Source of the DNA: Porphyridium purpureum
Taxonomy: Eukaryota
Direction of reading: 5' to 3'
Assembly (NCBI GenBank): GCA_008690995.1
Contig: VRMN01000028.1
Span: 1-59,159, forward strand
DNA: 59,159 nucleotides
Both the position numbers and the translations under genes were made by a program. Below the pieces are notes generated by a model, which was not told where the DNA came from, did no database searches, and was given only the letters and a program-made list of their open reading frames with translations. Shown piece by piece: positions 25,217-49,111 of this stretch (positions are counted from its first letter, which is position 1; each line of letters starts with the position of its first letter).

Positions 25217-25733
25217 CACCCGCTCTTTCCTTGCCTTTCCCTCCCGGTTGGACGATTCCCAGTGTTTCGCGGGACGTGCAATCGATTGGCGTGCTCAAAA
25301 CACACCCTTGTCTATCAAGATTCTTCACTTTTACACGAACTTCACTTTTTATGAGGGTGTTGCAAACATCTTGGCCAGGACTGTACTCACAAACCCTGAA
25401 CTAGAAGAAACAACAGAGTAAGAGAGGAAGAGCGGCGGGCCAAAAATCTCGTGCGGGCTAAAAGTCCCTCCTCCCTTGATAGGCAGCTTTGGCGCCTCTT
25501 TCCAAACCTGAGGGGTCGCCCTTTCGTGCCTCTCCACATTCCAAACCTGCGCGGGCTCAGATTGCGACCCTTCGCTTTCGACCAAAGAGATCGAAACCTG
25601 GTCATCGCTCGAAACGGGCGCTGCGCCCGGTGGCGATCCGTGAGCTGACGTGTGGATTCGTCACAGGGACCGGTAGTGCGCGGAGGCGACGGTGGTGAAG
25701 AATTTTTGTGTGGGGATTGGTTGGGTTGGCAGT

Positions 25734-27911
25734 ATGGCGGATATTCGTCTTCAGGCGGTGCACTCCGTGCCTGCCTCCGGGCCGCGGGGCGCTGGCGCTT
25801 CCGATGGTGGGGCGCTTGACATGGCAGACTTGCTGGCGGGGCTGGGTGACGAGAAGCAGCTGATGCGCGAGCGTGCGCTTCTGGCGCTTCGCAAGTGGTT
25901 GGGAAGCAGTGGCGCCAACGAGGATCTTGGGACGGTTGTGGATGCGTTGCTTGGCGCGCTGGAGAAAGAGGCCGGGGCGGGGCATGCGGAGGAACAGATG
26001 TGGCAGCTACGATGCGGCCTACTTTTGGCGCTTCGCGACGTCGTGCTGTATTTGGAAACCCATCGTGTGGATCCTGCGAACGGAAAGGACGTGAGTGCGG
26101 TCTTAAAGCCGCAGGACGAGGAGAGGATGGTCCAGCAGGCCATGATCGGGGTGGGCCGCGCAGAGCTGCGAGAGAGGCAGGCCGGTGCCCAGCTGCTCGG
26201 CGCAATGGCCAAGCTTCGCGGTGCGATTGTTTGGCGACAGACGGGTGACGCTCTGCTAGGGAGCGTCGAGGCGTCGTTTGAGCTGGACGAGAAGCAGCGC
26301 TCGCAGGAGAGTGCCGAGCTAGTGAAGCGTACCGCAAACGACTCAGCTCTGCAAAAGTCCGGCACGCAGCTGCTGCATGACACGGAAGGCTGGCGGAATC
26401 TTGAGACAAGCCTCAGCGCGGTGCGCTGCATTTTCGAGGCGTGCGGTGCGCAGATCTTTATGATGGCTAGTTCCGAGTCGCCGGCTTCGGGCGACAATGT
26501 TCACGCGCGGCTTCTCCCACTTGTGCTGCGCGCGCGCGAACACACCAACCGATTTGTGCGTGAGACGGCGCTGTTTGTGCTGACGGCGCTGGTGGTGGGT
26601 GCGTCTGAATGCGATCAGGCGAAGAAGGATGCACAAGACACGTCCCTACTGGCCCTCGCCGAGCGTGTGGCCGAGTCCATTGCGCGCGGGCTCGATGACA
26701 ACTGGAGCCAGGTGCGCTTTGCAGGTTGCGTGTGTGCGCGCGAGTTCATGTCGCGACTGGATCCTTCGCACCGCGAGGCATTCTACCCGCTTCTGCTGGC
26801 GCGCATGTGCTTGAACCGCCATTACGTGGCGGAGGGCGTGCGGTTGTACTCGCAAACGAGTTGGAAGCTTGTGATGGGTTCGCAGGGACGTCAAACGCTC
26901 ACAGAATACATTGCGAATGTCGTGGCATATTATACGACGCAGTGTGATGCAGACAACCACGCGGTGCGCGAGGCAGCTTGTCAGGCCTTTTCTGAGCTCG
27001 CCACGAAGCTTCCGGACGAGGCGGCCGTTATTCCGTTCATCCCAAGCATGCTTGGCGCACTTGTCAACTGCTTCAAGGATGAGAGCTGGCCAGTGCGCGA
27101 CTGTGCGTGCACGGCGAGCGCGCAAATTGTGTCACGCTTTGGCGCTTTGTCTGAAAATGGCGGCGCTGAGGCGTGCGCATCGTTCTTACCAGAGCTGCAC
27201 AGCCTTTGGGTGGCGCATCTAGCCGACAACATTCCGACTGTTCGTGCCAACTCGGCACGCGCGCTCGCGGAGCTTGCCGCAGTATTTGATGGGGATCATG
27301 CGCTTTGTGGGGCGAAGCGCGCTGTTGCAGAATGCCGTGCGCTGCTGCCGCGCGTACATGAGCAGCCGCGCGACTCGAAGAGATACGCTGCCGCACAGGA
27401 CACACAGTTTGGCGCTTCGCACAAGCTGGCGCGCGATAATGACCCCCAGTTGCACGAGAACCAAACCATGTATTCGTGTTGTTCGCCAGCACCAAAGCTA
27501 AAGCGCGGTGGCGGGTGCATGGACCACGGTTTTGCGCGCCACAAGCAGCCATGGGAGGAAACCGACGGAGCTCTGCGCCTGTTTGGCGCACTCCACCGCG
27601 TACAAAATAAGAACATCCACCCATGCGCCGAGCTGCTCGGCGACTTTGTGCAGCTCGCAGCTCAGATGAACACTGAATTTGCGCACGCGCCGTACCTGAT
27701 CGAAGCCTTATGGCTCTCGCTGATCGAAGCGCTGCCAGCCATCTCGAAGGAGCAGCTCGAGCCTTTCGTTGCGGCACTGCTGCCGCCGCTGCACGCGGCG
27801 GAAAAGTGTAATCATCCGTTGGCTGAGAACGCGGCGCGCAGCGCGGGCACGAAACTTCGTTCCAAACTTGGCTTCACGACGTGGAAGCAGGCAAGCGAAG
27901 CCGAACACTAG
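25734..27911 (+). CDS. Host HEAT/ARM-repeat protein of unknown function, intronless
   Basis: Long open frame with repeated HEAT signatures: GLDDNWSQVR, CDADNHAVREAAC, CFKDESWPVRD, HLADNIPTVR. Confidence 0.85.
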   Translation: MADIRLQAVHSVPASGPRGAGASDGGALDMADLLAGLGDEKQLMRERALLALRKWLGSSGANEDLGTVVDALLGALEKEAGAGHAEEQMWQLRCGLLLALRDVVLYLETHRVDPANGKDVSAVLKPQDEERMVQQAMIGVGRAELRERQAGAQLLGAMAKLRGAIVWRQTGDALLGSVEASFELDEKQRSQESAELVKRTANDSALQKSGTQLLHDTEGWRNLETSLSAVRCIFEACGAQIFMMASSESPASGDNVHARLLPLVLRAREHTNRFVRETALFVLTALVVGASECDQAKKDAQDTSLLALAERVAESIARGLDDNWSQVRFAGCVCAREFMSRLDPSHREAFYPLLLARMCLNRHYVAEGVRLYSQTSWKLVMGSQGRQTLTEYIANVVAYYTTQCDADNHAVREAACQAFSELATKLPDEAAVIPFIPSMLGALVNCFKDESWPVRDCACTASAQIVSRFGALSENGGAEACASFLPELHSLWVAHLADNIPTVRANSARALAELAAVFDGDHALCGAKRAVAECRALLPRVHEQPRDSKRYAAAQDTQFGASHKLARDNDPQLHENQTMYSCCSPAPKLKRGGGCMDHGFARHKQPWEETDGALRLFGALHRVQNKNIHPCAELLGDFVQLAAQMNTEFAHAPYLIEALWLSLIEALPAISKEQLEPFVAALLPPLHAAEKCNHPLAENAARSAGTKLRSKLGFTTWKQASEAEH

Positions 27912-28266: not shown

Positions 28267-29435
28267 TGTTGTGCTAAAAAGTGCCAAGGGGCGGAGAAGC
28301 TACCTCCTGCGAAGCCGACCGCGCGTACGCTGTGGGAATCCCATTGGCGGCCGCGTAGCAGCCTTCTCCGCGCTGTGTAGGTCTCTCCGGGGTTGCTCAC
28401 ACCCCGTGAAACCAGTTAGAAAAAGCGACACTCGAACTCTAAAGACAGGCCAATCCTGCTCCGCGCTGCTGCACCAGCCCTTTATATAGAGCAGCCGCGA
28501 GGGCTGGGACCATCGCACCCTCCGCGCGAACGTCCGGCCGGGTCGCTCTCGCCCCGGATACCGGTCGTGTCGACCACTAGCTGATCAGCAGGTCGTACGC
28601 TCGCTCGCGCCCCCTCAATTGAGCATCCTCGGGCGAGTTCGCTTTTTCAACACGCCCCCTCAAACTAGCGTCGGTTAAATGTCTGCGAAATGAATCCGCG
28701 CTTAGATGTTTCGTCAGCATGTCAGCCATATTGTCTTTCGTGCCCACCTTGTCCAGCTCCGTATCTCCGCGACAATAAAGATTGTGTAGCATACTCACAC
28801 TGATCCCATGATACTTCAAGGAGGCACGCAGACGTGCGGAACAACCTTTTCGGATGGTCGAGATGACGGCCGCGTTGTCCGTGAGGGTCTTCCCACAGAC
28901 GCTCTTCCCCAGGGAGCTTTCCATTAATTCGAGGGAAGGCACCATGGAATGATTAGTCGCTTCGTTCAGCACAATAATCTCGGCTTCCGTCGTACTGTCC
29001 GCTGTCGTCCGTTGCAACTAACTTCTCCAACCTAGTATGCCCACACGCCTTTGCCCCTGAACTGAGTCTTGAACCTCATAAAACGTTACCCATCCACTCG
29101 TGGACTTCCTCGTTGTGGCGCACCCCCCGCGATCTGCATCTAGTAACATGACCACGCATGCCCTGCTTGATTCTTCTGCATTGTGTGTGACGGACGTAAT
29201 TTGAGACTGTGTCTGCGTTGGACAACAACGTCGCCGATGGCGGATGCGTGCACGATCAGTCTGTTCGCCATGCGGATGGATTCCTTTCATAGGCGCGGAT
29301 CCATGAGGGCTTCGAAGTTGTTGGTCATGTGGCTGGATGCCCCTGAGTCCAAAACCCAGCCGTCGTTCCGGTCTGCGCGCACGACGTCGGCCCAAGTCCG
29401 CCCTTCAGTCCGTGTGTTAAAATATGAGGAAGGTA
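28267..29435 (-). mobile_element. Internally deleted Ty1/copia remnant: protease joined to RNase H, with a probable 3' LTR at 28267..28652
   Basis: WVLDSGASSHM lies within ~200 bp of DAD..RKSTSG, STTEAE, NMADMLTK; purine tract GAGGGGGCG then TGTTG...CAACA; TATA-like site near 28485; in-frame stops. Confidence 0.75.
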
Positions 29436-29693
29436 CAGTCCTGGCCAAGATGTTTGCAACACCCTCATAAAAAGTGAAATTCGTGTAAAAGTGAAGAATC
29501 TTGATAGGCAAGGGCATGTTTTGAGCACGCCACTCGATCGCGCGTCCCAAGAAACACTGGGGCGCGTCCAACCGGGAGGGAAAGGCAAGGAAAGAGCGGG
29601 TGGGCAATGGAGACAGCAAAAAGGGGGTATTGGCGAGCGGCGCAGGTTTTGGAATGTGAGAAAGAAAACACGAAGATCAAGAAGGATGAGACT

Positions 29694-30761
29694 TTAGTAC
29701 TTGGTGTGGTGGCCGCGCGCGTCCAGTACAGCTTGAAGACGGCGAGGCATGGACTCTAAAAGTGGAACTACGTACTTTTGGGCCTCGGTCGCCCACGCCG
29801 CAAGGACGGCAGCCTTAAGTTCTGCGACGCGTGCGAACTGGCGGCCTTTTTGGTAAACCACGCGCGGCAAGACGCCCCAAATGTTTTCAATTGGGTTAAG
29901 GTCCAGAGACCTTGCAGGCCACGGCAGCACAGTGACGCCGAGTGCGTCGAGCCACGCCTTGGTCGAGTTGGCCGTATGTGCCGGGGCATTGTCTTGCTGG
30001 AAAGTGAAATTGAAGTCATACATTTCCAGGCCGAACGGAAGCAAGGCTTCCAGCAAGACTTGTTGATACTTCACGGCATTCAAGCCACCCTCGACGAAGA
30101 CGGCCATTGTTAGGCCGCGCAGGGACATACCGGCCCACATGTGAACCTTGCCACCTCCAGATTGCTGGCGCCTGGCGTACGAACTTGACTTGGCGCGACA
30201 GTCGACCCATCGCTGTGAGGAGCCGAACGGGCCATCGCAGCTCCAAATCTTCTCGTCTGAAAAGATCACTTGATGCCAGAAAGCCATTGGTTTCGCAATG
30301 AATGCGGTGGCAAACGCCAATCGCTTGCTGGTGTTGTCAGACGACAGCGAAGGTTTCCGCGAGACTCGCTTGTAGCGAAGAAAGCCTGCTGCTTGAAGCG
30401 TCCGACGCACTGTCCTGGCCGAGCACTGCAAGTGCAGCTCGTGAACCACCTGTCCGGACGTCAGTGCATCAACAGATACGGCGCGAATGGTGCGGCGTTC
30501 CGATTTGCGACTCAAAAGCCGTTTCGGACCTGGCTTCTTGCGGACGATCCGGTGCCCCGTTGGCACAAGAAAATGACTGACAGTTGCATAGGATGGCCGC
30601 GAGCGATCTGGGCGCGTCATGAAGCCTTCGCAATTGCTCGTGCCGACAGCTCCTGGCCCGCAAGGGCGTCGATCTGCCCTTTTTCGTGTTCCGACAGTCA
30701 CGGCGCCATCGTTCGGCCGTTGCGCGCTCAATTTCGATCTGGAGACTCTCCACTTGCGCAC
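29694..30761 (-). CDS. Tc1-like DD34E transposase, copy B
   Basis: Near-identical protein to 18562..19629. Confidence 0.9.
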   Translation of the reverse strand: MRKWRVSRSKLSAQRPNDGAVTVGTRKRADRRPCGPGAVGTSNCEGFMTRPDRSRPSYATVSHFLVPTGHRIVRKKPGPKRLLSRKSERRTIRAVSVDALTSGQVVHELHLQCSARTVRRTLQAAGFLRYKRVSRKPSLSSDNTSKRLAFATAFIAKPMAFWHQVIFSDEKIWSCDGPFGSSQRWVDCRAKSSSYARRQQSGGGKVHMWAGMSLRGLTMAVFVEGGLNAVKYQQVLLEALLPFGLEMYDFNFTFQQDNAPAHTANSTKAWLDALGVTVLPWPARSLDLNPIENIWGVLPRVVYQKGRQFARVAELKAAVLAAWATEAQKYVVPLLESMPRRLQAVLDARGHHTKY

Positions 30762-30988
30762 GACGAGATGGATCAGCGAGCGAAGATCCTTTGAGCACCT
30801 TCTGATGGTCTGGGGAAAACAAAAACGCGCGCGCCGCGCCTTGGTTCATCGTCATGCTCGATGTGAACAATGTTAAAAAAGAGTTAAAAATAAGCTTTCT
30901 ATTAAAATGGGCTATTTTACTATAAGATCCATTTTTTGGACCAAAATGCAGGTATAAACAGTTAATTTCTGTCTCCGCAAACGGTTTA

Positions 30989-31184
30989 TGTCGCTACCGA
31001 GGTATGTGGGTACAGTTGCCTGCGATATAAGATAGCGGCCGGTCTGGCAAACCTGTGGCGACAGTGGTGGAGAGAGAGAGAGTGGACAGAGAGTAGTAAA
31101 GAGGACTTATAGTTCCCGGCCCATGGTAGCGGGTGAGAGCCCCCCAAAGCTGACTACTCGTCCACACGGAAGATAGCAACAGCA
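30989..31184 (+). repeat. 5' LTR of copia 2
   Basis: Repeat of 48916..49111. Confidence 0.93.
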
Positions 31185-31297
31185 TTGAATTCAATCCGTT
31201 GCGTGGATTGTCTTCGGGGAGAAGGAAGGAATATTCCTATCACAATGAGAAAACAAAGAGAACTTTCGCCCTCTGGGCAGGCCTGTGTAGGCACAGG

Positions 31298-31593
31298 ATG
31301 TCTCAGTTAAGCGGATCGGCTCTATCCACCCGCGTGCTAGAGGCACGCGAGTTGACGGAAGAGTACAAAGCACAAATGGCAGACAAGGACACGGCGGAGA
31401 TCTTGGAGTCCCTTCAGGTTATGTTCACCGGCGAGATCATCAAGAATCTGGGGCCTGTCGGCCAGTTCTCATTCTACAGGTGGCTTGTAGACAAAGGAGT
31501 CACGATTCCTGAGAAAGACCATGGTGGGAACATAATCCCTGTTCTTTTCCGCCTTTTACCATTGTTGTCAGTCAGCCAGCGGGATCCGGGATC
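31298..31593 (+). pseudogene. First part of copia 2 gag
   Basis: ATG at 31298; rejoins 44449 in frame (DPGS-TSNV) when the insertion and one TSD are removed. Confidence 0.8.
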
Positions 31594-31644
31594 CAGTCCG
31601 TGTGTTGAATATTTGCCCGTACTTTGAGAACCGAATACACCCAG

Positions 31645-31762
31645 GAAAAACTGACCGAAAAACTGACCGAAAAACTGAAATAAAGTGTAAGCAGGCCAAG
31701 ATCAGCTTTTCGGTCAGTTTTTCGGTCAGTTTTTCGGCCAGTTTTTCGGTCAGTTTTTCGGT
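31645..31762. repeat. Left subterminal 12-bp repeat array in both orientations (AAAAACTGACCG / CGGTCAGTTTTT)
   Basis: About 3 forward then 4 reverse units forming an inverted repeat. Confidence 0.9.
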
Positions 31763-31911
31763 TACGCCCATTACATTTAAGCATTACCCATTTATAAATT
31801 ACTTTCTTAGACATTACCAGATTTTAGAAATTACGTTTCGCGACATTACCAGACTTTGAAACCGGAATCTTTATCGGTTCACTTTTATTTCAAATTTGAG
31901 TCCTTACTTTT

Positions 31912-34563
31912 TTAGAAAAACGCATCCACACAGTCGTCGTCGTTGATCTGTCGATTCGCATCTTGTGCAAGATGGAGGTTAATCTTTTTGTCCGTCAGGA
32001 TGTTGATCAATGAAGATTTACCGTATGCAATCACTGCCTCCCACAATCCGCGGCGCAACTCGACAATGTTGTCTGTATCCGTGTTGATATGTACCATCGT
32101 ACTGTCCGAAAGTATACGAGGCATTGAAGCGACAATATTCTGGATGTAAATTTTGAGGCACTTCGCATCCGACAAAAGTTTACGCTGCTCCATCATCCGG
32201 GTCATGCTGTCGTTGACTAAGCATGGATCGAACTCGTCACTTCTCAATCCGGATCTGTACAACATCGTCGACATCGGAAACGGCTTCCCCCACTGACCAG
32301 GTAAAGATCCGAAGTTGATTCTCTTCAGCGCTTCATTGAGACTCGTCCCCTCTCCGAATGTACGAAGAAAGTCGATGATGTTTCCGTGTTCATCAGTGAA
32401 ACGTTTTGTCGATTTCGGATGAAGAATGTAGTTGGTACGCTCTTTCGACTTCAGCATTCGGTAATGTGTGACAAGTCGCCGTGTTCGTAGATTCTGTGCA
32501 CTGCATGTGACTTGAGCTCCATATATGGAACAATCCGGATTGTCTGAATCATGTGTACAGGAAAGCATATACGATAAAACTGTCGTTACGGCTTGCTCAA
32601 AGTTTCGATTGTCCTGACACTCGGTGATCAATACATCTTCGAAGTCATTCGCTGTCCAGGCAACTGATACGGATTGACGAGTAGGCGTCCTTCCGGATCG
32701 AAGCGAACGCATTGTAGCGTAGAGTAGTGCGTAAATCCGAAGTCCAGTTGCGATAAGCTCAACAAATATCCCTGAATTCGCATCTTCGAAATCGTCGAGT
32801 CTGAGAATGTTGAGATCTTTCAGCGGCCTTGGGATGTGCTTGCAGACGAATGTTGCTGGATTCAGGAATACCGGCCACACTTGATGTCCGATTACGCATC
32901 GTGTCACATGGCGAAGAAGCAGGATGGATTTTTGATCGGATGATAAGTTTGTCTCACCGAGAGATTGAAGAAATGCGTATGTGGTTTCGTCATTAGCATG
33001 TGCATTGTTTGGTAAGTGCGCATCGCTGTTTCGCACGTCGAATGTATGCGACAGCAGAATATTTCCAGCCTTCGGTGACTTGAGCGACAAGCCGACGAAC
33101 AAGTTCTTTCGTATCGTCGTATATATCAGGTTCAATGATCGCTCGCGTGCGGCTCTCAATTCGACGACTTGAATCGTACTCAGCTTTGTCATATCCGTAG
33201 GAATGTATGAGTTACACAAATCACCAATCGTGTCTGATGTATTATTCGAATAGTATGCATTGTACCACGCACCGCTCTTTTGCGTGATTGGTTTTGTCAA
33301 ACCTTCGTCGAGCTTTGATGTGGATGAGCATGCCTTGGATTTGGATCGCTGTCTCATCGAATGTTCTGCATACGCTGGTTCGGATACCTTGCGGTTGTCG
33401 TCTTCATTTCTGCTATGCGCATCGAGTGCAGCCAAACATTCTTCGGTGATAGTCAGTGGTACGAGTGGTGCCGCTCCACTTCGAAAAAATGCGAGAAGAT
33501 CCAAATCACAAATGCTGCCTGGAGTGTATGGTTTAATTCGCGACGTGTTTCGCATCTTCAGTTTAGACTTCTGCTTGAACTGTGAACGGGTATTCGATAA
33601 CGTGAGCGCGACCGTTGCATCTGAGTTGGTCATTGTTATTGTCGCAGCGCCGTCGAATACCGGAGTAGGACGATGAGTCTCAAAAACTGCGTCATTCGCT
33701 TGATCCGGATACGTATTATTCGGATTATCATCGCATAATACGTTTGCCTGTGATGGACTTTCATCCTTGTCCATCGGCGACTGCATTACTTCGGTCTCAC
33801 TTTCGCGAAGTGGTGGTAGCATCGGATGTTGCGGATCAACAGTCTGAGGAAGACCAGTGCATTCAATCGCAGCATATGGTGGGAAACCAGCATCGAGAAG
33901 AGTCAATGACTCATACGGTTCGTCATCTGTACTCGCAGAATTCGTTGGTTTGTGTTTGATCCGAGCAGCCGTTGTCGTCGGTGCCCGTGTTTCCGTGTGA
34001 AGCTGTTGAATCCGCGTGGTATTTGTGTTCGTTCTTGTTGCCAGGTTCGCGGATTTCTTTCGACACTTGCGCTTATTCGGATGGTTGAAGGGCGAGTCAT
34101 TGTCTGTATCGTCAATCCTTTGTGTTGCATTCTTTTCTGTTTCGGCGAATGTATCATATGTGTGGTCAGCGCATGTATTTTTGCCGAACAATTTCAATGC
34201 AGCACAGGTCGTATGCATCGTCTTTTGGCATCCATCTGCTAGACATGTGATTGTGTCGTACTGGTCGTCGTCGGATGCGATTGTATTCGACGAATTCAAA
34301 CGACTGCATTCTCCGGATATGTGAACTGCGAAACACGGTTGCCGATCACTGGCGGTAGTGGGTTGAAGAATCGCATCGGTCGACGCCTTGATGTACCGCT
34401 TTCTTTGAGCTGCCTTCCCGGTCTTGCTCGTTATCTTCTCCAAATCCGTGTTCCCTAGCAATGACGGTGCGTCAGCCTTTGACAGACATCCGGATCTTCC
34501 GCGCCCTTTACGCCGCCCTGAATCCACAGTTTCTTTGTACATCCTTTTACCGATTCCGCGCAT
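31912..34563 (-). CDS. Transposon accessory protein, 883 aa, N-terminal PHD-like zinc finger, unknown C-terminal domain
   Basis: Long ORF; C-x8-C...C-x4-C-x4-H-x2-C...C-x2-H at 34162-34335. Confidence 0.75.
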   Translation of the reverse strand: MRGIGKRMYKETVDSGRRKGRGRSGCLSKADAPSLLGNTDLEKITSKTGKAAQRKRYIKASTDAILQPTTASDRQPCFAVHISGECSRLNSSNTIASDDDQYDTITCLADGCQKTMHTTCAALKLFGKNTCADHTYDTFAETEKNATQRIDDTDNDSPFNHPNKRKCRKKSANLATRTNTNTTRIQQLHTETRAPTTTAARIKHKPTNSASTDDEPYESLTLLDAGFPPYAAIECTGLPQTVDPQHPMLPPLRESETEVMQSPMDKDESPSQANVLCDDNPNNTYPDQANDAVFETHRPTPVFDGAATITMTNSDATVALTLSNTRSQFKQKSKLKMRNTSRIKPYTPGSICDLDLLAFFRSGAAPLVPLTITEECLAALDAHSRNEDDNRKVSEPAYAEHSMRQRSKSKACSSTSKLDEGLTKPITQKSGAWYNAYYSNNTSDTIGDLCNSYIPTDMTKLSTIQVVELRAARERSLNLIYTTIRKNLFVGLSLKSPKAGNILLSHTFDVRNSDAHLPNNAHANDETTYAFLQSLGETNLSSDQKSILLLRHVTRCVIGHQVWPVFLNPATFVCKHIPRPLKDLNILRLDDFEDANSGIFVELIATGLRIYALLYATMRSLRSGRTPTRQSVSVAWTANDFEDVLITECQDNRNFEQAVTTVLSYMLSCTHDSDNPDCSIYGAQVTCSAQNLRTRRLVTHYRMLKSKERTNYILHPKSTKRFTDEHGNIIDFLRTFGEGTSLNEALKRINFGSLPGQWGKPFPMSTMLYRSGLRSDEFDPCLVNDSMTRMMEQRKLLSDAKCLKIYIQNIVASMPRILSDSTMVHINTDTDNIVELRRGLWEAVIAYGKSSLINILTDKKINLHLAQDANRQINDDDCVDAFF

Positions 34564-35117
34564 TCTCCAAATCCCTCCGCGTTGTCAATATCCGCGTTGA
34601 CCTCATGCGCATAGACCTTTGTCTTGTTCACCCGGATCCGCGTGCCACCCCGTCAGCGCTTTGTCCCTTCCGTCCCCTCCGCCTTCTCCGCTCCCTCCAT
34701 CCCCTTCGCTCCTGTCTTTCTTCAGCCGGAATCTACATAGTCCCTCCCGCCCTCTGGTCTGCAGATTAGTTTCCTCGCTTGGCTTAATTTGCGCGCGCTC
34801 AGGCAATAAATCATCAAATGATGTTGTTTTATTATAATTTTGAATATGCATGAAAAGTCATCGAATTGTGATGAGGTATCCGGTTCATACTCAAATAGCT
34901 CTTTTTCATCCATAGCCATTCCTGACTTTGATGTGCATGGCTCACTTCGTTCGTGTGACGAAGTCGAGCATGGGCGTGGATCGTATGAAGGTGTCGAGGT
35001 TCGGGCTCTCTGTGCTTGTGTGTCAGAGGTGACGTTGCGCATGCGAATTGTCGGGCTACAACACACGGATAGGAACTGATACGCGGATATGCTGCCGTCT
35101 TACTCCTAAGCCCAGCA

Positions 35118-36074
35118 ATGTCGGATAGTGAAGAAGTCGATCGACTGCGAACGCAACTCGCTTTGGCGCTTAGTTCGAATATCATTGCTCAGAATACTAC
35201 CGAATTGAAGGCACGAGAATATGCGCTTTATTCGATGATCACCGAGTCCAAGCTCATGAGCGTTGAAAAGGAAATTCAAGGTCTGCGGCGTGATATCGAC
35301 GAGATAATCCGAATGCTCCGCGAACGCGAACGAGATCGTATCGCGGATCCGATTGCTGTGCGGGAACCGAGAAGTGGTGAAAACATACAGGGTGCAGGCT
35401 TCAATACGGACGTTATCTGGATGCGTACGTCTATGATCAATGCACAGCGCAATTTATCCGAGTTTCTGTCGCGGATCAATTGCCGTTACATGGCGTGCCA
35501 GAATTCGCATGTGGTTCCCGAATTGGTCATGGTGGATTGGCCAGTGCAACATTCGGATGGATGGCCTGCCAAGATCGAACGCATTGATGATTTGCAGTAT
35601 CCAATTCCTGAACATGTTTTGTTAGAGCATCCGGCATTCGGTGTACGACAGAAGAGCAAGATTCAGCGTATAAGTCGAGTATACGTTCATTTCCAAGGTC
35701 AAGCGTTGACAAGCGATCTGTTGAAGTTCCATCCTCATCCGGATGCATCTACTGTCTGGTCCAATCTTTTATCGTATATTCTGGTTTGCTGGAATGTCAC
35801 GGGGAGCCGTCGGTATCCGTGGGAGAACTTTTCGTGGGTGACAAAGGAAAAGATCCGTGGGGTTTTCGAATGCTACGAATCGACATACGGCTCTGCCTGT
35901 CTTCGTTTCTGTCATTTGTACGGGTTCGATGAGGTGGACACGGATCCTCCCATAGCGTGCTCTCGCGCATGTACACAAGGTTGCCTTCGTAGGCGTGGAA
36001 GAACCTTGCATGATTTCGCGACTGACTGTAAACGCATGCACGATACGTTGATCCGTATGAAATGTAGCCTTTAA
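35118..36074 (+). CDS. Transposon accessory protein, 318 aa: coiled coil, PWWP-like region, Cys/His tail
   Basis: Homologous to 17141..18292; ELVMVDW..GWPAKI and ILVCW..FSWV.KEKI resemble the PWWP strands. Confidence 0.78.
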   Translation: MSDSEEVDRLRTQLALALSSNIIAQNTTELKAREYALYSMITESKLMSVEKEIQGLRRDIDEIIRMLRERERDRIADPIAVREPRSGENIQGAGFNTDVIWMRTSMINAQRNLSEFLSRINCRYMACQNSHVVPELVMVDWPVQHSDGWPAKIERIDDLQYPIPEHVLLEHPAFGVRQKSKIQRISRVYVHFQGQALTSDLLKFHPHPDASTVWSNLLSYILVCWNVTGSRRYPWENFSWVTKEKIRGVFECYESTYGSACLRFCHLYGFDEVDTDPPIACSRACTQGCLRRRGRTLHDFATDCKRMHDTLIRMKCSL

Positions 36075-36138
36075 TAAAACATCTTGGACGAAATCTAGGT
36101 CTACTTCACATTAAAATGTATGCTCATATCGGATCATT

Positions 36139-37173
36139 TCACTCGATCGAATGCGAGTCGTTGTCCAGCATTGCCATATCTTCAGCCAAAGTATCCGCCT
36201 CTTTATACGATTCCGCTGCTGCATTCCATTCGTCCCTGCACTGGTCGTGGGCAAGCGTGAACGCTTCAAAGCTTCCGGATGAAGGTACAAGAACACAATC
36301 CTGGATTATCTTTTTCAATGCAATGTTCGACCTGCTGTAGCGCGTGCCCGGCGCGAGCTCTGCACGGATGACCTGGAGTATGCGGTGCTTGAATCCGATG
36401 AAACTCTTATTATGCTCCTCGGCCAATTCGAAATACTTGCTGGCAAGCTCCGTTCGGAGCTTGCGATTCATCTGACCGATCCTCATCGAGGTCTCTTCCC
36501 CCGTATGCCGCATTCTTGACCATGTCGTTGTTCTACGCGAAATGAGTCCATCCGGTTCGAAGAGAATTCGAAGCTTGATCAGTTCATCCGATATCGTGCG
36601 CACTTGTCCGTAGTCAGCGTATTCGGACATAGCGTCAATATCAGGATCTCTCATACGTTGCTGAAAACCATTGTTGCTCAGATCCTTGGGCTCGACGAGG
36701 ATCTGCCACGAATGCAAGAAATGTGGCGTCGGATTCAACCACATCAATACTTCTGGCACATTTGCAAATATCGCAGCCGTACAAGAATCCGTATGCATCG
36801 TCCTAGTGATTGAATCAATGTATCCGGGTGAGAGCCATACGCGCGGTGGCATTTCCCATGGTCTTGCCGACGTTCGACGGCGACGCGAACCCACCTTGTA
36901 TTCGTCTTCGTCATCTTCCACCGGATTCTCAGCACGACGAAATAGATCCCATGTAAATTCGACAATCGCTGGAACTGCACGAACGAAGTATTCGATGATA
37001 TCATTCATTGCCGGATCATGCTTTTCGTAGTCCTTGAATACATATCGGCTCTGAAACTGGTCCACGATCTGCCGCGTGATACGAATTTGAGCTGCAAAGT
37101 AATGCCATGCGATGTGATAGCGTGCGACCCACAGTCGTGCATGAAGTTCGCTGAATCGATTATACTGGTCCAT
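36139..37173 (-). CDS. Transposon accessory protein, 344 aa, unknown function
   Basis: ATG-initiated ORF with protein-like composition, tightly packed between neighbours. Confidence 0.7.
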   Translation of the reverse strand: MDQYNRFSELHARLWVARYHIAWHYFAAQIRITRQIVDQFQSRYVFKDYEKHDPAMNDIIEYFVRAVPAIVEFTWDLFRRAENPVEDDEDEYKVGSRRRRTSARPWEMPPRVWLSPGYIDSITRTMHTDSCTAAIFANVPEVLMWLNPTPHFLHSWQILVEPKDLSNNGFQQRMRDPDIDAMSEYADYGQVRTISDELIKLRILFEPDGLISRRTTTWSRMRHTGEETSMRIGQMNRKLRTELASKYFELAEEHNKSFIGFKHRILQVIRAELAPGTRYSRSNIALKKIIQDCVLVPSSGSFEAFTLAHDQCRDEWNAAAESYKEADTLAEDMAMLDNDSHSIE

Positions 37174-37197
37174 TCGAAAGCTCCTTCCGTGTTTATC

Positions 37198-39819
37198 CTA
37201 ATCAGCGTGATGGCGCGTTACATCGAATACAGGCCATTGCCTCCTCCATTCAATCACACTTTCTACTCGCACCTGGAACGACGGCCAGTAGGCACAGATC
37301 TCATGGAATGCAGTAATCGTATGCACGCTCGATAGGTACGAACCACTCGGATAACCATTCATTGTATCCATTTCTGGCGAGAAGCTCGTGGAGGTATCCG
37401 AATATTTTCTGAGCACCTGGTCATACGCGAAAACATCAATTTCCTTTGTTTCAGCGAGCAACATTCGCCGCGTCACTTGATTCCGACCGAATCCAACCCT
37501 GGCATCCATCGACCGTTTGTAATACGCATGTTCATATGCTGCTTCGATGCATCGTTGTTCTTGATCACCCCCCATCGTTTTCTTCCGGCACAACAAGAAT
37601 CGATGTGCGTATCGGATGCCACGCAGCACATCCTGAAGAGGATGAACCGGAAGGCGCTCCACAGTGCCAATCGGATTCGTATACACATCTTCGTAAGAGA
37701 AATCATCGCATGAACATCCGTATCGAGAATCACATTTGTTTCCCATCGAAGCCGTATGCGTGTATCGACATGGTCTGTATGCCATACAGGCAAGCGCGCC
37801 TTGGACTGCGCAAGTCACCGCATACCATTCGTTGGCTAGAGATTCAAAGTGACCTAAGGCATCAAATCCACGTCGCATCTCCGCTGGTTGCATTAATTCC
37901 GTATTATCCATCGGATGTGCAAATCGGAGCCTTGCGTACGCATTATTCATATTCAAGGCATTGATACGGATTAGATCCCAGAGCATTGCTGTATCTCTCA
38001 GCATCCATGAAAACATGCCGCTATCCGCTATCGTGAAGCCGGTTGGGTCTGATGGATGATTCATCACCCGAATAATATAATCCTCGGATGCAAACTTTCG
38101 TCCTCGGTAACCCGTCGTCTTCTTCGTCGCCAGGTGGGGTACCTCCTGAATGAGGTACGCACCGATATCCGCGTGCAGGAATTGACAGTCATCCGAAGTA
38201 AACGCGAATTCATCCGTAAAGTATTCGTCTACTGTGTAGTTGCTGAACAGCAGCGCATTCGGAAGCTCTGCACCGTTATAGTCTTCGCGTGGAGAGTCTT
38301 CGCACGGAGTGACTTCGAAAAATTCGAGCCCGGTCAGACCGTCGGTGAAGTTCTGATGCGGATCTTTGTTCTCGAACGACCATGCCGTAAGCATTCGCAT
38401 GTAGAAGTCGACGTTCAGAATCACATCCAAAAGATGCAGACCCACCTTGTCATTTTCCTTGGCCTCTATGTGAATGGCCTTATACGTATTCTCACTTGCA
38501 TCCTTGTACATCGCACTGAATCGATCTATGATGTCGTAATGCGAAAAGCCTCGTCTGATGGACTTAGGTTGCTGCATCGGATGACTGCTTCGACCGAGAG
38601 TGCACGTATCTGTCCGTGCACGCTTCGGATCCTGACGTGAAGCAAATATCCCAGGCACATTTCGGATATCACTTCGAATTTCTCCTCGGATATAGCTAGG
38701 TCCCGGATCGTCTTCGCGGCTGTATGAAGCCGTGTCATACTTGACATTCCCATATCCGCGGGGAATCTGTCCCGGGCGCGGGAGCGAACTGCTTCCTCGC
38801 CTTTCGAATGGCGCACGGTACGTTCCGGATCCAGAACCACTTGGCATATCGATTCTACCATACCCAGGCGGGCCTCGTAGCGTTTTCTGGGTATTCGGAT
38901 TCAGCGCAGCGGCCCCAAGTCGCAGCGAACTCGCCGAATTACTACGGATGAGTCCACCACGAATGCGACGGCTGCGCTCATCAGCATCCGATGCTTCACT
39001 ACTTTCGATCGAATCTGACATTCGTCGTTTCCCTTTGTCAACAGTCGAGACCCTTTTCGATCGCCGAGTATTCGGATTTACGTCAGACTCAGCATGCTGT
39101 CCTGAAGGTGCGTTCGAATCACGCAAATTCGTTTCAGGCGTTCTCTTGACACGCATATCCGTATCCATTTTCGCAGCGTCCAACGAATCTCCGGATGCAT
39201 ATTTCTCTGCACCAGCACCTGCTGCAGGTAGTCCGGTATCCGCTGGAACGTGTCCGCGCAATGCTCTTGCCGACACACTCTGCGAATCCGACGACACAGA
39301 AACCGCGCGAATCGGAGATCGACGGCCAACACTGGACATGGGTGTGGTCGACTTCTTCGCAGTATCCGAAGCCTTTCCCACGATATCGGACGGTTTCGCA
39401 CCGACGTCCTTCACTGGATCCTCCTTCGGATTTGCACCGACGTCCTTCACTAGATCCTCCTTCGGATTCGTCTCCGCGTCCGCGCATTTCGCACCAATCG
39501 GATCACCTACTGCAACCGTCTCAGCTGAAGCCGTAGCTGGCGCGGACTCCGACGGCATTTTTTCCACATCCCTCTCAACTTCATCATTCGGATGACCTCT
39601 GACGGCTGCCTTCAGTTTCGACGATGCTCCACGCACTGCCGAACCCTGACCCGCACCGGACGCACGCCCAGGCTCCACCTTTTTCGTCGCCGCCGGATTC
39701 GTCGCTTTACCCCCCTTGCCCTGCGCACTTCCGGATACCACTTTCCTTCCTTTCGACGGATTCGGATCCGCCACTTTCTTCCCGGTGTTCTCCATCTCGT
39801 CCCGCTCACCACCACTCAC
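37198..39819 (-). CDS. Transposon accessory protein, 873 aa: low-complexity N-half, globular Cys/His-containing C-half
   Basis: Long ORF divergent from the transposase; includes a 12-aa tandem repeat NPKED(L/P)VKDVGA. Confidence 0.75.
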   Translation of the reverse strand: MSGGERDEMENTGKKVADPNPSKGRKVVSGSAQGKGGKATNPAATKKVEPGRASGAGQGSAVRGASSKLKAAVRGHPNDEVERDVEKMPSESAPATASAETVAVGDPIGAKCADAETNPKEDLVKDVGANPKEDPVKDVGAKPSDIVGKASDTAKKSTTPMSSVGRRSPIRAVSVSSDSQSVSARALRGHVPADTGLPAAGAGAEKYASGDSLDAAKMDTDMRVKRTPETNLRDSNAPSGQHAESDVNPNTRRSKRVSTVDKGKRRMSDSIESSEASDADERSRRIRGGLIRSNSASSLRLGAAALNPNTQKTLRGPPGYGRIDMPSGSGSGTYRAPFERRGSSSLPRPGQIPRGYGNVKYDTASYSREDDPGPSYIRGEIRSDIRNVPGIFASRQDPKRARTDTCTLGRSSHPMQQPKSIRRGFSHYDIIDRFSAMYKDASENTYKAIHIEAKENDKVGLHLLDVILNVDFYMRMLTAWSFENKDPHQNFTDGLTGLEFFEVTPCEDSPREDYNGAELPNALLFSNYTVDEYFTDEFAFTSDDCQFLHADIGAYLIQEVPHLATKKTTGYRGRKFASEDYIIRVMNHPSDPTGFTIADSGMFSWMLRDTAMLWDLIRINALNMNNAYARLRFAHPMDNTELMQPAEMRRGFDALGHFESLANEWYAVTCAVQGALACMAYRPCRYTHTASMGNKCDSRYGCSCDDFSYEDVYTNPIGTVERLPVHPLQDVLRGIRYAHRFLLCRKKTMGGDQEQRCIEAAYEHAYYKRSMDARVGFGRNQVTRRMLLAETKEIDVFAYDQVLRKYSDTSTSFSPEMDTMNGYPSGSYLSSVHTITAFHEICAYWPSFQVRVESVIEWRRQWPVFDVTRHHAD

Positions 39820-40226
39820 GCACCCGCACTGTCCACCGCGCTACCGCCCTCTCCGCCTTGTCCGCCTTCCCAGCGCTTCCCACCTTCGCACAACCCACCT
39901 TCTCCGGATCACACCAACTTCCCCACACGATCTGCTCTTCGCCCCACGGCCACTGCGGCCTGCGCGTTTGACTTGTATCGAATTTGATGGACCCAAATGA
40001 AAAAAATGGCAGAATTGAATGGCATGTGGGGTTTTGTCGGGAAAATTACGCATTCACAGAGAGAAAGCTTTATATTAACTACCTCTTTGGCTTGCCGTGG
40101 TACAAACGCTACGCCTGCGTCCAGGAAAGACGCGTGCGTCGGATTGACGGAAGGCTTTGGAGGCGGAACGGATACAGCGTGACGTGCGCGAAAACATACG
40201 GATAGGAAGACTTCCCCAAACCGCGA

Positions 40227-43200
40227 ATGGACAGACAGCAAGGCCTCGAGAGCAACGCTTGGCATCGACGTAGAAACAAACGTATCCGATGCGATGGGAC
40301 CCGATGCGACTTCACCGTACCAGAGGATGAGGGATTGACTTACTCCACGCGACTTCACATGATGCAGTCACACAAGCGCAAGTGTAAACTTCGCATGCAT
40401 CCGAATCGACTCCCGTATACGCAGGCCTACTTATTTGATGCGGACGACGGTAGTTTGCAGAGGGAGGACAGTCCGGATGATACGGGAAGCGCAAATACAG
40501 AAACGCGGACTGGACGAGGCAGTGAGCTTCCTGATATCCGGATGGATGACGAGGACCCGGAAATGCAATTTCATTCGGATCGTGACATTGACAGCGGTTG
40601 CGAGAGCTTGCATGCAAACCTGACACAGGATGCGGAAATGTATCTAAGACCGATGGAGCCGGTGCGTGGCGGAGAAGAAGGAGAAGAGCAAGTCGAATAT
40701 ATCTTAGGTCCGTATGCCAAGCACTTTAATGCGTTATTAAACCAAAAGACTTTACGAGAGCGCTTGCAAGATCGTGACGACGAGATGTCAAAATTCGTAC
40801 GGAGTCTGACAGGCGCGGGTGAAATGGAAGATGTTGATCTGGATGAAGCAATCGAGATGATACGATTTAAAAACGACCAGGAAGTATTCATCCAGAAGCA
40901 TGGGATATCCGTACGTCATGCCACGGACTTAAAGTCGATTGAAGCCAAACTCTTACGAATTGCTATCCGTATGACTCTGCGCCAAGTAAGCCAGCTGACA
41001 AAACACTCATTTACCATGTTGAAAAGGTATCCGTTAAACCACGAGGCGTCTCGAATCGACGCTGTATACGCTGCATTACAAAGCAAATTGAACATAGCTT
41101 CCTCTCACGTGCTGAAACGAGCAACAAAACTTCTTTTCACATTCAGATCTTCGAAGCGGATGTCTTCGCTTCTTGGCAATCCGAGTATTAAACCTGTTGA
41201 GACGTACGTCGAGTATGGTCGCGGAATCCGACTGAGACGAAACACCCTACGCCGGAACGTGAAGCAAACGATCCGATTTCGTGAACCGATGGACATCGTC
41301 ATGCGTTCAGCTGCAGCTATTATTGATGAATACGGATTGGAGCCATTCGTTATCGACTTATTCAAAACCCGGGATCGCGAAATAGTGATGCATCCGCAGG
41401 ATGGAAACCTCTGCATCAGCGCAGCCCGTCGGATAGAATTTGAAGTGAATCGAAAACATGGACCGGATCCACCTCAGGTTGTAATTCTTCCAATACAGAT
41501 ATTTGCGGATGAGTCCCATATGACCCAGAATGGACGACACACAGTGACGCCACTGAAGATACGAATAGTACATCGAAGGCTGTTTGATACACACTCTTCC
41601 CGTATTCCTCAAGTCGTCGCATACTTACCACCTGTGGATACCCGAAGTATTGCACGAGCATTTGGTGAGGAAACAAGTATCCGCATTGATCCGAAGCTAG
41701 CCAAAAGAGAGCTCGAATCGTCCATGTACCATGCAATTATGAATAAGGCATTCCACCATCTCATGATCGCGAATAAATTCGGAGTGCCAGTCCTGTGGAA
41801 TCATCGCCGCTTGCTTCTTTTTCCTATTGCATACAAGTTGTCAATGGACATGCCGATGATCTCAAAATGCTCATTTACGAAAGCTTCTTTTGTATCCGGA
41901 TCCCGTGCTCGAACCATGCCATGCCATCAATGCATGGTGATAGCGCCAGAGGCCACAACTCGAGCAGTCGAAGCAGGACCAAATTCGGATGCATCCAAGG
42001 CAGAAGAGTTCTGGATTACGCGTATTCCTCTGCAATATCGCTGTGAGAAGCAGGTTGAACCTTTCATCACGCAGAATTTATCTGCATGGGGCACGCTACA
42101 GAGAAAAGAACAATCTCTCCACTTTCTCGGTGACTCAGCGGCTATCGGATGGAATCGATTTGATGATGACGATGACGTTGCATTCAATGCAACGATATCC
42201 GCATTCAAACACAAAATACATCTGCGCAACCGCGGGAGATTTCAACTGACAGGCATAGATGGCTTGCACGGATTCCTTGCATTTTGGCTTCGAGGTATCA
42301 CAATCGCTGGTCTCAAAGCATTGCTGAGCAAACCGAATACTGTACACGAGGTAGGCCTCGTCGCTGAGAGACTCACGGAAGCGCAGCAGCGAGCTACGCG
42401 ACACTTGAACGAAGTAGAACATTCGGATTTTCCACGCATGTGGGCTTCACTCGATTTCGATGAACAAAGACATGGAAGTGCATCCGAAGATACCAGTGGC
42501 GATGATTCAGAGTCGCATGACGAATACTCTTCGGATGATGACATTGTCCGCGCGAATGAAAGAAATTCGTCACAAACGAATACACGTCAAAGACCAAAGG
42601 CCAAAGCAAAGACGAACGACTCTCACATCAATCCGAGGAGGGCAGAGTCCAACAGAAAGGGCAGCGTATCTGACCAACTTCGAGGTATCATCGACTCAGC
42701 AGCAGGTAAAGCTTGGAACCAAATTGCGACGGAGATAACGGATGAGGCGAGGTTCCGGCGACCAGCGACATACTCTCCGATACGATTATCTTCGTTTTTA
42801 TCCGACTTACCCAAATTCGCAGAACAATCATATTCGCTGGGCTTTCTACTTCAAATGATTGTTCTTGTACACCAGGAGCATTTACTCTCGGATCGTACAC
42901 GTGAAAGCTTTACCGAACTTGCAACCAGATGTATCCGACTGTATGGCGTACTATACAAAGAAAAGCTGCGTCGACCATGGCTTGAACTCATCCCAAGGCT
43001 CACATCCGACTTGCAATCCCGACTCGATTCATACAAGCGGCAGATCAATCTACGTTGGAATGCTCCGAAAATACATGCACTGTCTCACTTCGGGGACAAC
43101 TTGACGGATCTGGGACCGATAAAGTTTTGGGATACTACGGATGGAGAGAAATCGTTTCAAATCGACAAGGCGTGGTTCAAATCACTGGTCAGCGCAGATA

Positions 43201-44093
43201 CGAATATCCCACATAATGTCATGCTGCAGCGCGCAGAGGTGTTCGAAATCGGATCTTCTTCTTCGTACTGGTTTGATAAGCTTGCAAGGAACAAGGATTC
43301 GAATGCAATTGCATACACACACGAACAAGTATCCGATGAAGCATACACACATACACGAGAATCGGATGCCGCTCGAGCGTGGTACCGGCACCGCTCGTCT
43401 TCTGTGAACTGTTCATCGATCCTTTTCGGAATCTGGCAGAACGCGTGCACTACTCTGAGGTACAGCAGCGAATCCGGATTCGAGGCTGCCCCTTCATGGC
43501 GACCAACATCGTGGAACCCTTCTATATCATTCGAATCCGCTGATGACGAAGAAACGAACATGCTCTGGTTGCACACGGATACGGCTTTGAAGACGTATGC
43601 ATCCGAGAAACTCCAAACGGCTGTGAATGATGGTACTGCAACCTTCCAAGCTTTCAGACAAGTTCAACTGAAAAAGCCTCGCGACGAAGCCGAATGCATT
43701 GTTGCACATCCGAATCACTATCGTTCTCCGAGATGGGACATTCTCGAATACGCACTACAAACTGGTCACCCTGAACGCCACGGATATGGAAAATGCATCC
43801 TAATTGTCCGGATCAAATTACAGGGACCTTACGACGAATCCTTTGACGTGGTGGTGATACAAGATTTAGAGGCGCACGATGGAGAAATCGAAAAGTCAGA
43901 GTGCAAATGCAAATGCAAGCGCCTAGATCCGGTGTTTCATCATTACCGACTCAGTAATAATTCGGTAAAAGTATTGGACACAGAAACGATAACCGGGCGA
44001 GTGACAGCATTCAAGGATATCCGCATGAAGGACAGCCGATGGTACTACCTTTTAAACCCAAGCACATTCGAAGGCGTACTAGAATACAATTAA
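40227..44093 (+). CDS. Plavaka-like transposase, intact, 1288 aa
   Basis: ILPIQIFADESHMT, LSMDMP, PCHQC, IDGLHGF, WNAPKIHALSHF..GPIKFWDTTDGEK match the Plavaka pattern as I recall it (D..DxP..CxxC..DxLH..PKxH..H..G....T..E); N-terminal C-x4-C..H-x3-C. Confidence 0.82.
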   Translation: MDRQQGLESNAWHRRRNKRIRCDGTRCDFTVPEDEGLTYSTRLHMMQSHKRKCKLRMHPNRLPYTQAYLFDADDGSLQREDSPDDTGSANTETRTGRGSELPDIRMDDEDPEMQFHSDRDIDSGCESLHANLTQDAEMYLRPMEPVRGGEEGEEQVEYILGPYAKHFNALLNQKTLRERLQDRDDEMSKFVRSLTGAGEMEDVDLDEAIEMIRFKNDQEVFIQKHGISVRHATDLKSIEAKLLRIAIRMTLRQVSQLTKHSFTMLKRYPLNHEASRIDAVYAALQSKLNIASSHVLKRATKLLFTFRSSKRMSSLLGNPSIKPVETYVEYGRGIRLRRNTLRRNVKQTIRFREPMDIVMRSAAAIIDEYGLEPFVIDLFKTRDREIVMHPQDGNLCISAARRIEFEVNRKHGPDPPQVVILPIQIFADESHMTQNGRHTVTPLKIRIVHRRLFDTHSSRIPQVVAYLPPVDTRSIARAFGEETSIRIDPKLAKRELESSMYHAIMNKAFHHLMIANKFGVPVLWNHRRLLLFPIAYKLSMDMPMISKCSFTKASFVSGSRARTMPCHQCMVIAPEATTRAVEAGPNSDASKAEEFWITRIPLQYRCEKQVEPFITQNLSAWGTLQRKEQSLHFLGDSAAIGWNRFDDDDDVAFNATISAFKHKIHLRNRGRFQLTGIDGLHGFLAFWLRGITIAGLKALLSKPNTVHEVGLVAERLTEAQQRATRHLNEVEHSDFPRMWASLDFDEQRHGSASEDTSGDDSESHDEYSSDDDIVRANERNSSQTNTRQRPKAKAKTNDSHINPRRAESNRKGSVSDQLRGIIDSAAGKAWNQIATEITDEARFRRPATYSPIRLSSFLSDLPKFAEQSYSLGFLLQMIVLVHQEHLLSDRTRESFTELATRCIRLYGVLYKEKLRRPWLELIPRLTSDLQSRLDSYKRQINLRWNAPKIHALSHFGDNLTDLGPIKFWDTTDGEKSFQIDKAWFKSLVSADTNIPHNVMLQRAEVFEIGSSSSYWFDKLARNKDSNAIAYTHEQVSDEAYTHTRESDAARAWYRHRSSSVNCSSILFGIWQNACTTLRYSSESGFEAAPSWRPTSWNPSISFESADDEETNMLWLHTDTALKTYASEKLQTAVNDGTATFQAFRQVQLKKPRDEAECIVAHPNHYRSPRWDILEYALQTGHPERHGYGKCILIVRIKLQGPYDESFDVVVIQDLEAHDGEIEKSECKCKCKRLDPVFHHYRLSNNSVKVLDTETITGRVTAFKDIRMKDSRWYYLLNPSTFEGVLEYN

Positions 44094-44184
44094 AAGACAA
44101 AGTCCGATGAAGTCTCATCTTCTCATGATTGAAATTATTCGCTACCACCCATCTCGCAAACTTTAAAGTTGCAGACAGTATCGA

Positions 44185-44426
44185 GCAGTTTTTCGGGCAG
44201 TTTTTCGGGCACTTGATTTTGCAGCCTTTCTTTATTGCCTAGTAAATCGCTGTACGCACGGAAAGTCTACTGTACCTACAGTTTTTCGATCAGTTTTTCG
44301 ATCAGTTTTTCGACACTTCAGTATGACAGTTTTTCGAACGCTGCGAGAGAGGTACAGCAAATAGCTGTACTTTACATGCTTACATCAATTTCAGTTTTTC
44401 GTTTAGTTTTTCGGTCAGTTTTTCGC
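44185..44426. repeat. Right subterminal repeat array (CAGTTTTTCG core)
   Basis: About 9 units in clusters at 44185-44210, 44279-44337 and 44392-44425. Confidence 0.88.
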
Positions 44427-44446
44427 TCCATTTGTGTCACGGACTG

Positions 44447-48915: not shown

Positions 48916-49111
48916 TGTCGCTACCGAGGTATGTGGGTACAGTTGCCTGCGATATAAGATAGCGGCCGGTCTGGCAAACCTGTGGCGACAGTGGTGGAGA
49001 GAGAGAGAGTGGACAGAGAGTAGTAAAGAGGACTTATAGTTCCCGGCCCATGGTAGCGGGTGAGAGCCCCCCAAAGCTGACTACTCGTCCACACGGAAGA
49101 TAGCAACAACA
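48916..49111 (+). repeat. 3' LTR of copia 2
   Basis: Repeat of 30989..31184, followed by GTTTA. Confidence 0.93.

Follow-up and report, generated by a model that had tools for sequence, protein, structure and literature searches.

Positions 1-59,159 of contig VRMN01000028.1 of Porphyridium purpureum (assembly GCA_008690995.1), a stretch of DNA referred to as the window, contain two related DNA transposons, here called elements 1 and 2. Element 2 is complete and carries the subject of this study, an accessory gene consisting of a 318-amino-acid (aa) open reading frame (ORF); element 1 is decayed and holds an intact paralogue. Each element is also studded with its own short DNA word, GGANTCC in element 1 and CGGAT in element 2, and we consider here whether the accessory protein could read it. 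The features of both elements are listed in Table 1.

Table 1 Features of elements 1 and 2 and of the element-2 accessory protein (positions in the window).
Feature	Position	Strand	Basis or remark
Element-1 transposase	6662-10408	-	In-frame stop at 6833-6835 near the C terminus; GGANTCC dispersed
Decayed homologue of gene X, C-terminal part only (element 1)	10500-17140	+	In-frame stops; split by copia at 11102-16866; tblastn E 1.3e-5; left limit approximate
Accessory gene paralogue (element 1)	17141-18226	-	361 aa, frame intact
Element 2, complete CMCT-clade DNA transposon	31594-44446		12,853 bp, inserted in a copia element; empty-site joint
Left terminal inverted repeat, CAGTCCGTG	31594-31602	+	9 bp; target duplication TC before it at 31592-31593
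Left subterminal 12-bp repeats, CAGTTTTTCGGT type	31645-31762		7 copies
883-aa accessory gene	31912-34563	-	PHD-like Cys/His cluster near residues 77-132; sub-threshold Pfam
Accessory gene of element 2 (this study)	35118-36074	+	318-aa ORF
Long amphipathic helix, residues 3-76	35124-35345	+	Predicted coiled coil; AlphaFold2, heptad scan
C122-x4-C127-x3-H131, before the core	35481-35510	+	Candidate zinc ligands; invariant in four subfamilies
Residues 136-153, LVMVDW-x7-WPAKI	35523-35576	+	Predicted strands 1-2; invariant W141, W149, P150; pLDDT 37-48
Residues 161-218, helical insert	35598-35771	+	Invariant I163-P164, L168-L169, H171-P172, W214
Residues 220-248, YILVCW...YPW...FSWV...	35775-35861	+	Predicted hairpin (strands 3-4), short helix, strand 5 in one model
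Residues 252-308, Cys/His tail	35871-36041	+	C252, C261, C281, C285, H308 and invariant R293-G294; pLDDT < 50
Accessory gene X	36139-39795	-	ORFs of 865 and 344 aa; a single protein of 1196 aa in other annotations
Element-2 transposase	40227-44093	+	1288 aa; N-terminal C-x4-C...H cluster; FADE/MDM/DGE acidic motifs, C(2)C, H(3)H; alignment
Right subterminal 12-bp repeats	44186-44427		9 copies within 44094-44446
Right terminal inverted repeat	44438-44446	-	Followed by TC at 44447-44448

The host of the gene is a multi-gene cut-and-paste transposon of the CMCT clade. Reads and contigs of four of four runs join position 31591 directly to 44447, giving the empty site, and further flanks were seen at 44446. 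The description of the clade in PMC12730594 lists C(2)C and H(3)H transposase motifs, 5'-CA..TG-3' termini and target duplications of 2-5 bp; element 2 has CAG..CTG termini, a 9-bp inverted repeat and a 2-bp duplication, and C-H/Q-Q-C and H-A-L-S/T-H are found in all three transposases compared, with catalytic residues assigned by position only. The subterminal 12-mer, of which no copy lies inside element 2 away from its ends, is likely to be the transposase site. For placement in Plavaka there was no Pfam match and no non-Porphyridium transposase for a tree, and the termini are unlike the fungal TGT..ACA or CATCA..TGATG. No Rfam family was found in element 2, and none of the genes of element 1 or 2 gave a Pfam match to a methylase or to any other enzyme domain.

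The accessory gene lies between two other accessory genes. Gene X had no Pfam family match and is unrelated to the 883-aa protein; its split at 37174-37230, set against the single-protein annotation, implies a short intron, and the sparse RNA reads held no splice joint. The 883-aa protein matched PHD (E 0.17) and PHD_NSD (E 0.081), both below the Pfam cut-off. Its N-terminal Cys/His cluster (33900-34563, minus strand) looks a better histone-reader candidate than the 318-aa protein, but one below cut-off. The copia element interrupted by element 2 spans 30979-49111, with long terminal repeats (LTRs) at 30979-31184 and 48905-49111 that are 98% alike, and its gag start (31298-31593) and remainder (44447-48484) flank element 2.

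The first-pass annotation had proposed that both elements share this gene, and the ORF and its one homologue in the window are indeed real. The two proteins are identical at 100 of 338 positions (30%; E 4e-42, tblastn of the window), and among the other matches listed all had E values of at least 0.5. The shared motifs proposed for the pair occur in both copies, as LVMVDW-x7-WPAKI ... YILVCW-x12-FSWVTKEKIR in element 2 and IVIVDW-x5-WPCRI ... YLLVCW-x12-YSWIPKAEVR in element 1, but the consensus was drawn too tightly: the element-1 copy begins with I rather than L, and two further subfamilies have VEW/LVRW and FQW/HVLVCW at these positions. Between the window copies, the proportion of synonymous differences (pS) is 0.82, which is saturated, and that of nonsynonymous differences (pN) is 0.471, equal to the 0.474 between the two transposases. 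The accessory gene is under purifying selection, its invariant Trp, Cys and His residues being kept against a background of saturated synonymous change. The gene had an RNA depth of about 2-3x in one of two RNA runs and zero in the other; these reads, which may derive from other element copies, fall on the expected sense strand under the usual library convention, with no host gene as strand control.

The accessory gene, X and the transposase have the same order and orientation in both elements. Element 1 is decayed, with a stop in its transposase, stops in X, and copia and mariner insertions, and its accessory gene is intact. Its ends could not be fixed, as there is no clear inverted repeat and a long interspersed nuclear element (LINE) and a mariner interrupt the flanks. 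At 6037-8100, strand-biased RNA rises to ~110x in one run; by the usual library convention it is antisense to the element-1 transposase, and its start lies close to the 5' end of the neighbouring LINE. A 3.9-kb duplication (2674-6555 and 55273-59159, 94% alike) includes a GC-rich non-LTR retroelement and the element-1 end, and the window stops inside its second copy.

Relatives of the protein in databases give P. purpureum as their organism, and the family is very small, with four subfamilies at 33-54% identity to the query, of which three are from P. purpureum. Homologue searches returned 2 matches among 673 candidates, 3 among 1.84 billion representatives and, with a domain profile, 4 among 7,992 candidates. 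Locus scans found relatives of the accessory protein in 0 of 60 metagenome stretches, relatives of the transposase in 0 of 220, and relatives in 0 of 22 and 0 of 31 viral contigs; a word-limited transposase search gave 2 matches among 6,824 candidates, both from Porphyridium. A third family repeats the association: the genes FVE85_2739, 8721, 9360 and 4586 adjoin the transposase tags 2738, 8722, 9359 and 4585 (four of four), and one of the five transposases in the cluster (FVE85_4208) is without such a neighbour among the proteins retrieved. Accessory gene and transposase are thus found together in three families, the third family and other copies having been read as proteins and the two window elements as DNA. 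A literature search, mostly without subscription journals, listed no published account of these Porphyridium elements, of the protein or of a PWWP accessory gene in a CMC element.

A full-length AlphaFold2 (AF2) model, built from a four-sequence input, had a mean predicted local distance difference test (pLDDT) score of 57.5 and a predicted template modelling score of 0.41. It places a helix at residues 3-76, a second helix at 94-118, short strands near 137-139 and 152-153, the helical insert at 165-218, strands at 220-225, 238-242 and 246-248, and a tail (249-318) with pLDDT below 50. The N-terminal coiled coil that had been suggested at the outset is predicted here as well: the first helix has pLDDT values of 69-84 in blocks over residues 1-70 and a hydrophobic a/d heptad in four of four subfamilies. 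In the four-sequence alignment, 59 positions are invariant, including W141, W149, P150, W214, W225, Y233-P234-W235, W240 and R293-G294, as well as C122, C127, H131, C252, C261, C281, C285 and H308, although the C127 column is loosely aligned in one of the four rows. The Cys/His tail of the first-pass annotation is present, and further invariant Cys and His residues lie ahead of the core, so that the core has them on both sides. The segment at 252-308 is a candidate zinc and DNA-contact module.

Whether the core is a PWWP domain, as had been proposed, is doubtful. The PWWP plan (PMC3119473) is a five-stranded β-barrel with an insertion motif between strands 2 and 3 and a C-terminal bundle of 1-5 helices, and its cage is formed by three residues at i, i+3 and the end of strand 3 (for example, Y18/W21/F44). 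The core resembles this plan in predicted strand order, in the insertion predicted between strands 2 and 3, in the W-P that opens strand 2 and in the Trp that closes strand 3. It differs in that the motif is reduced to W-P, no aromatic residue stands at the i-3 position of the cage, the helical insert is about 60 residues long, a Cys/His tail seems to take the place of the helix bundle and no profile or structural match was obtained. In the sequence register of the cage, two of the three aromatic residues are present, as invariant W149 and W225, but the four subfamilies have S, A, K and S at position i; invariant W141 might stand in for the third. The models are of low confidence in this region. 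Over residues 137-248, pLDDT is ~37-65, and the full-length model has three strands of at least three residues plus short ones; the domain-only model (pLDDT 51.7) keeps four strands, with the last turned to helix. Both models place the helical insert between predicted strands 2 and 3, and they differ after residue 243.

Searches for the fold gave nothing significant in Pfam, PDB profiles, Foldseek or VIA. Pfam searches with three complete proteins, two cuts of the domain and four half-domains gave no PWWP or Tudor match at E <= 10, and the whole query gave none at E <= 0.1; a Chromo_MIT1 match on the insert (E 0.057-0.14) was below cut-off. In Foldseek, 11 of 27 listed rows were small SH3-like barrels by title, including the BRPF2 PWWP and the RBBP1 chromobarrel, with none of the rows significant. 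Two Atlas language-model searches, using overlapping parts of one protein, ranked clusters bearing GCR1_C first (scores 0.85-0.89, with 163-188 of 256 features shared), where a score below 0.9 is a lead only; GCR1_C was present on 20-47% of members in the top three rows, and 9 of the 10 best named matches share a family. GCR1_C (PF12550) is linked to Crypton elements and DNA binding. Proteins with this domain are thus the nearest language-model neighbours, but there is no hidden Markov model or profile support (no Pfam GCR1_C match at E <= 10), and the predicted hairpin is ill-suited to a helical domain. An hhalign comparison with the Crypton-like C-terminal ORF of the window gave a probability of 0.3%, a weak control given that this ORF itself has no Pfam match. 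The PWWP label for the core is, in sum, unproven: the strand order, the helical insert and invariant W141, W149 and W225 speak for it, and the missing cage residue and the lack of a significant fold match speak against it. The interpretation offered in the first-pass annotation is, overall, supported in part.

The two DNA words, also picked out in the first-pass annotation, hold up as real and element-specific. GGANTCC occurs 32 times against 1.1 expected and 10 times against 0.4 in two parts of element 1, and CGGAT 154 times against 39.5 in element 2, which carries CGGAT/ATNCGNAT throughout. No enrichment of either word was seen in the partner element, nor in the copia, gypsy, Crypton-like and host regions; in the LINE, a z score of 3.1 comes from a single TGGAWTCC site. 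In synonymous shuffles, which preserve both the protein sequence and its codon usage, none of 300 reached the observed CGGAT/ATCCG count in any of five element-2 ORFs or the observed GGANTCC count in either of two element-1 ORFs, and none of six control ORFs showed word enrichment. Counted as palindromes, GGANTCC has 43 sites in 6,448 bp, and ATNCGNAT, a loose palindrome into which CGGAT extends, has 53 in 12,350 bp, compared with 4 and 5, respectively, in 15,828 control bp. Because both words are palindromic, they fit a dimeric binder.

The words sit largely in genes. They occur in all reading frames, 143 of the 154 element-2 CGGAT sites lie in ORFs and 11 in spacers, rather than in non-coding tandem repeats, and both ends of element 2 lack them. 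In the transposase genes, 44 of 50 sites (element 2) and 24 of 25 (element 1) sit where the alignment has no gap, and just 2 of those 25 element-1 sites come within one column of an element-2 site. This combination of ungapped columns and rarely shared positions indicates that substitution within each lineage gave rise to the words. The sites are more regularly spaced than chance would give for ATNCGNAT (22 of 5,000), marginally so for CGGAT (158 of 5,000) and not for GGANTCC (625 of 5,000). One-off variants of CGGAT are also enriched (CGAAT 109, CGTAT 62, CGCAT 59).

Element-specific palindromes call for a family-specific, probably dimeric, reader or writer, and the accessory protein is a candidate reader because all three families share it, a coiled coil is predicted at its N terminus, candidate zinc modules are present, and it is intact in a decayed copy. 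We tentatively propose that it would dimerise through the predicted N-terminal coiled coil, that the dimer, with putative zinc modules and perhaps a small β-barrel core, would bind the palindromic word dispersed through the genes of its own transposon family, and that this binding would mark cognate copies for activity, possibly by an effect on silencing, in the manner of VANC or TnpA. This is a possibility rather than an expectation. The Atlas leads, weak at scores below 0.9, favour it in pointing to a DNA-binding family. We are somewhat more doubtful of an extended version, in which the genes of each family were recoded by point substitution with a private palindrome about every 85-240 bp and a coiled-coil, barrel and zinc dimer switched from reading chromatin marks to reading the palindrome, coating the element.

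Several observations weigh against the accessory protein as palindrome reader. No result links the words to it in particular; the reader could just as well be the transposase or the product of another accessory gene, X or the 883-aa protein, and Sasaki et al. describe transposases as able to act as sequence-specific activators themselves. No fold was identified for the protein, which is not basic (segment net charges of -4 to +4), and its RNA depth is low. Its divergence, being that of the transposase, shows no excess from a change of specificity. ATNCGNAT is significant alone in three of five element-2 ORFs, and the accessory gene is not among them (88 of 500 shuffles reach its count). The words were also chosen on the same DNA as that on which they were tested, two elements having been read as DNA. 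Finally, the Porphyridium words are placed unlike those of either precedent: the motifs of VANC belong to non-coding tandem repeats, and those of TnpA are terminal.

Among the alternatives, the core could be a divergent PWWP or other Royal-family barrel whose ligand is a methylated histone lysine, or nucleosomal DNA bound without regard to sequence; it would tether a transposition or anti-silencing complex to chromatin, with another element protein reading the palindrome. Histone reading was the second of the two roles offered in the first-pass annotation. We think this rather unlikely, but it draws on the predicted order of strand, strand, insert, strand, strand, short helix and strand, which fits the plan in PMC3119473, on W149-P150 and W225, which occupy two of the cage positions and are joined by the likewise invariant aromatics W141 and Y233-P-W235, on the SH3-like barrels in Foldseek and on the adjoining PHD-like gene; transposons often capture Chromo and PHD readers (10.1101/2021.11.30.470311). 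The missing cage residue and absent fold match count here as they did above. Less probable again is a scaffold or cofactor of the transposase or X, built of coiled coil and zinc modules and without a reader role, the palindromes being read by the N-terminal zinc finger of the transposase, by X or by the PHD-like protein. A divergence equal to that of the transposase and a near-neutral charge agree with a scaffold, as do an N-terminal Cys/His cluster of the transposase that differs between families and the X remnant in element 1, but the invariant Trp residues and R-G motif suggest a ligand surface, and the accessory gene is intact in the copy whose transposase has a stop.

The remaining two alternatives concern the origin of the words and the kind of DNA-binding domain. 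The palindromes could be the mutational footprint of an element-linked DNA-modifying and repair process that made the word with no selection for a binder, as cyanobacterial HIP1 has been modelled (PMC4390886), with the accessory protein unrelated or targeting the enzyme. The words are palindromic, dispersed in all frames and accompanied by one-off variants, and a gene for a putative adenine methylase is described from the Plavaka elements of red seaweeds (10.1101/2025.02.11.637652). We nevertheless regard a footprint as improbable: neither element has a detected enzyme domain, confinement to one element still requires a family-specific targeting step, and ATNCGNAT is spaced more evenly than random, though GGANTCC is not. 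Marginally more improbable, in our estimate, is a core related to the helical GCR1_C domain of Crypton elements, which would still make the protein a DNA-binding agent of self-recognition and the PWWP reading wrong. The Atlas ranking suggests it, but the scores come from overlapping queries, the profile searches and the hhalign control gave nothing, and both AF2 models fold residues 220-242 as a β-hairpin.

The rest of the window holds further repeats and host genes. A Tc1/mariner element (18343-25384) contains a nested Ty3/gypsy element (LTRs at 19726-20048 and 24908-25227), and a second mariner copy at ~29433-30953 is 96.6% alike over 1,359 bp. A broken tyrosine recombinase gene in three ORFs (49505-51670), without a Pfam match, is taken by us to be Crypton-like from motifs such as HSLRKG, and a tandem array of a 111-bp coding unit (1-1787) presumably encodes Sel1-type repeats. 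Ordinary-looking host genes lie between repeats at 25734-27911 and 52365-54531: a HEAT-repeat protein, a 294-aa protein without a Pfam match and an aldehyde dehydrogenase fragment.

If the accessory protein does read the palindrome, it would work like VANC or TnpA yet belong to neither. As in Arabidopsis VANDAL, a separate accessory gene in a DNA transposon goes with a family-specific short word at high density (PMC5735166). VANDAL, in the same account, is Mutator-like, the motifs of its VANC are not palindromes and are confined to non-coding tandem repeats, and VANC has DUF1985/DUF287; unlike these, the Porphyridium words are palindromic, derived by substitution and mostly in coding DNA, and no element gene has a Pfam match to DUF1985 or DUF287. 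TnpA of Spm/CACTA shares the transposase clade, a separately encoded regulator and family-specific motifs, according to 10.64898/2026.08.24.746577. There, TnpA has tandem helix-turn-helix motifs, binds terminal clusters and is reported from flowering plants only, whereas the Porphyridium words are spread over the full length of the element body and missing at its two ends. The giant Plavaka elements of red seaweeds, Bostrychia among them (10.1101/2025.02.11.637652), are likewise of the EnSpm clade, with three accessory genes (PAG1-3) and a proposed self-binding protein, but no ParB, SET, adenine-methylase or 2OG (2-oxoglutarate)-oxygenase domain and no Pfam Plavaka match was detected in the Porphyridium elements. 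That source detects Plavaka only in Bangiophyceae and Florideophyceae and gives PAG1 without a known domain; the three-gene cassette that it describes is a different one, in which PAG1 might be related to the Porphyridium protein.

Two diverged elements in one transformable alga, with different words and paralogous candidate readers, make a clean swap experiment possible. Should the protein be no more than a scaffold or a divergent PWWP, the gain would be modest, a further case of a transposon that has captured a chromatin-type domain; a preference of each protein for its own word would show co-evolution of protein and site within codon limits and add a new DNA-binding domain. Sequence-specific self-recognition encoded by transposons is known mainly from flowering plants, through VANC and TnpA. 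Should the extended version be true, a VANC-like system would have evolved independently in red algae, its address carried by coding sequence and its reader from outside the known families.
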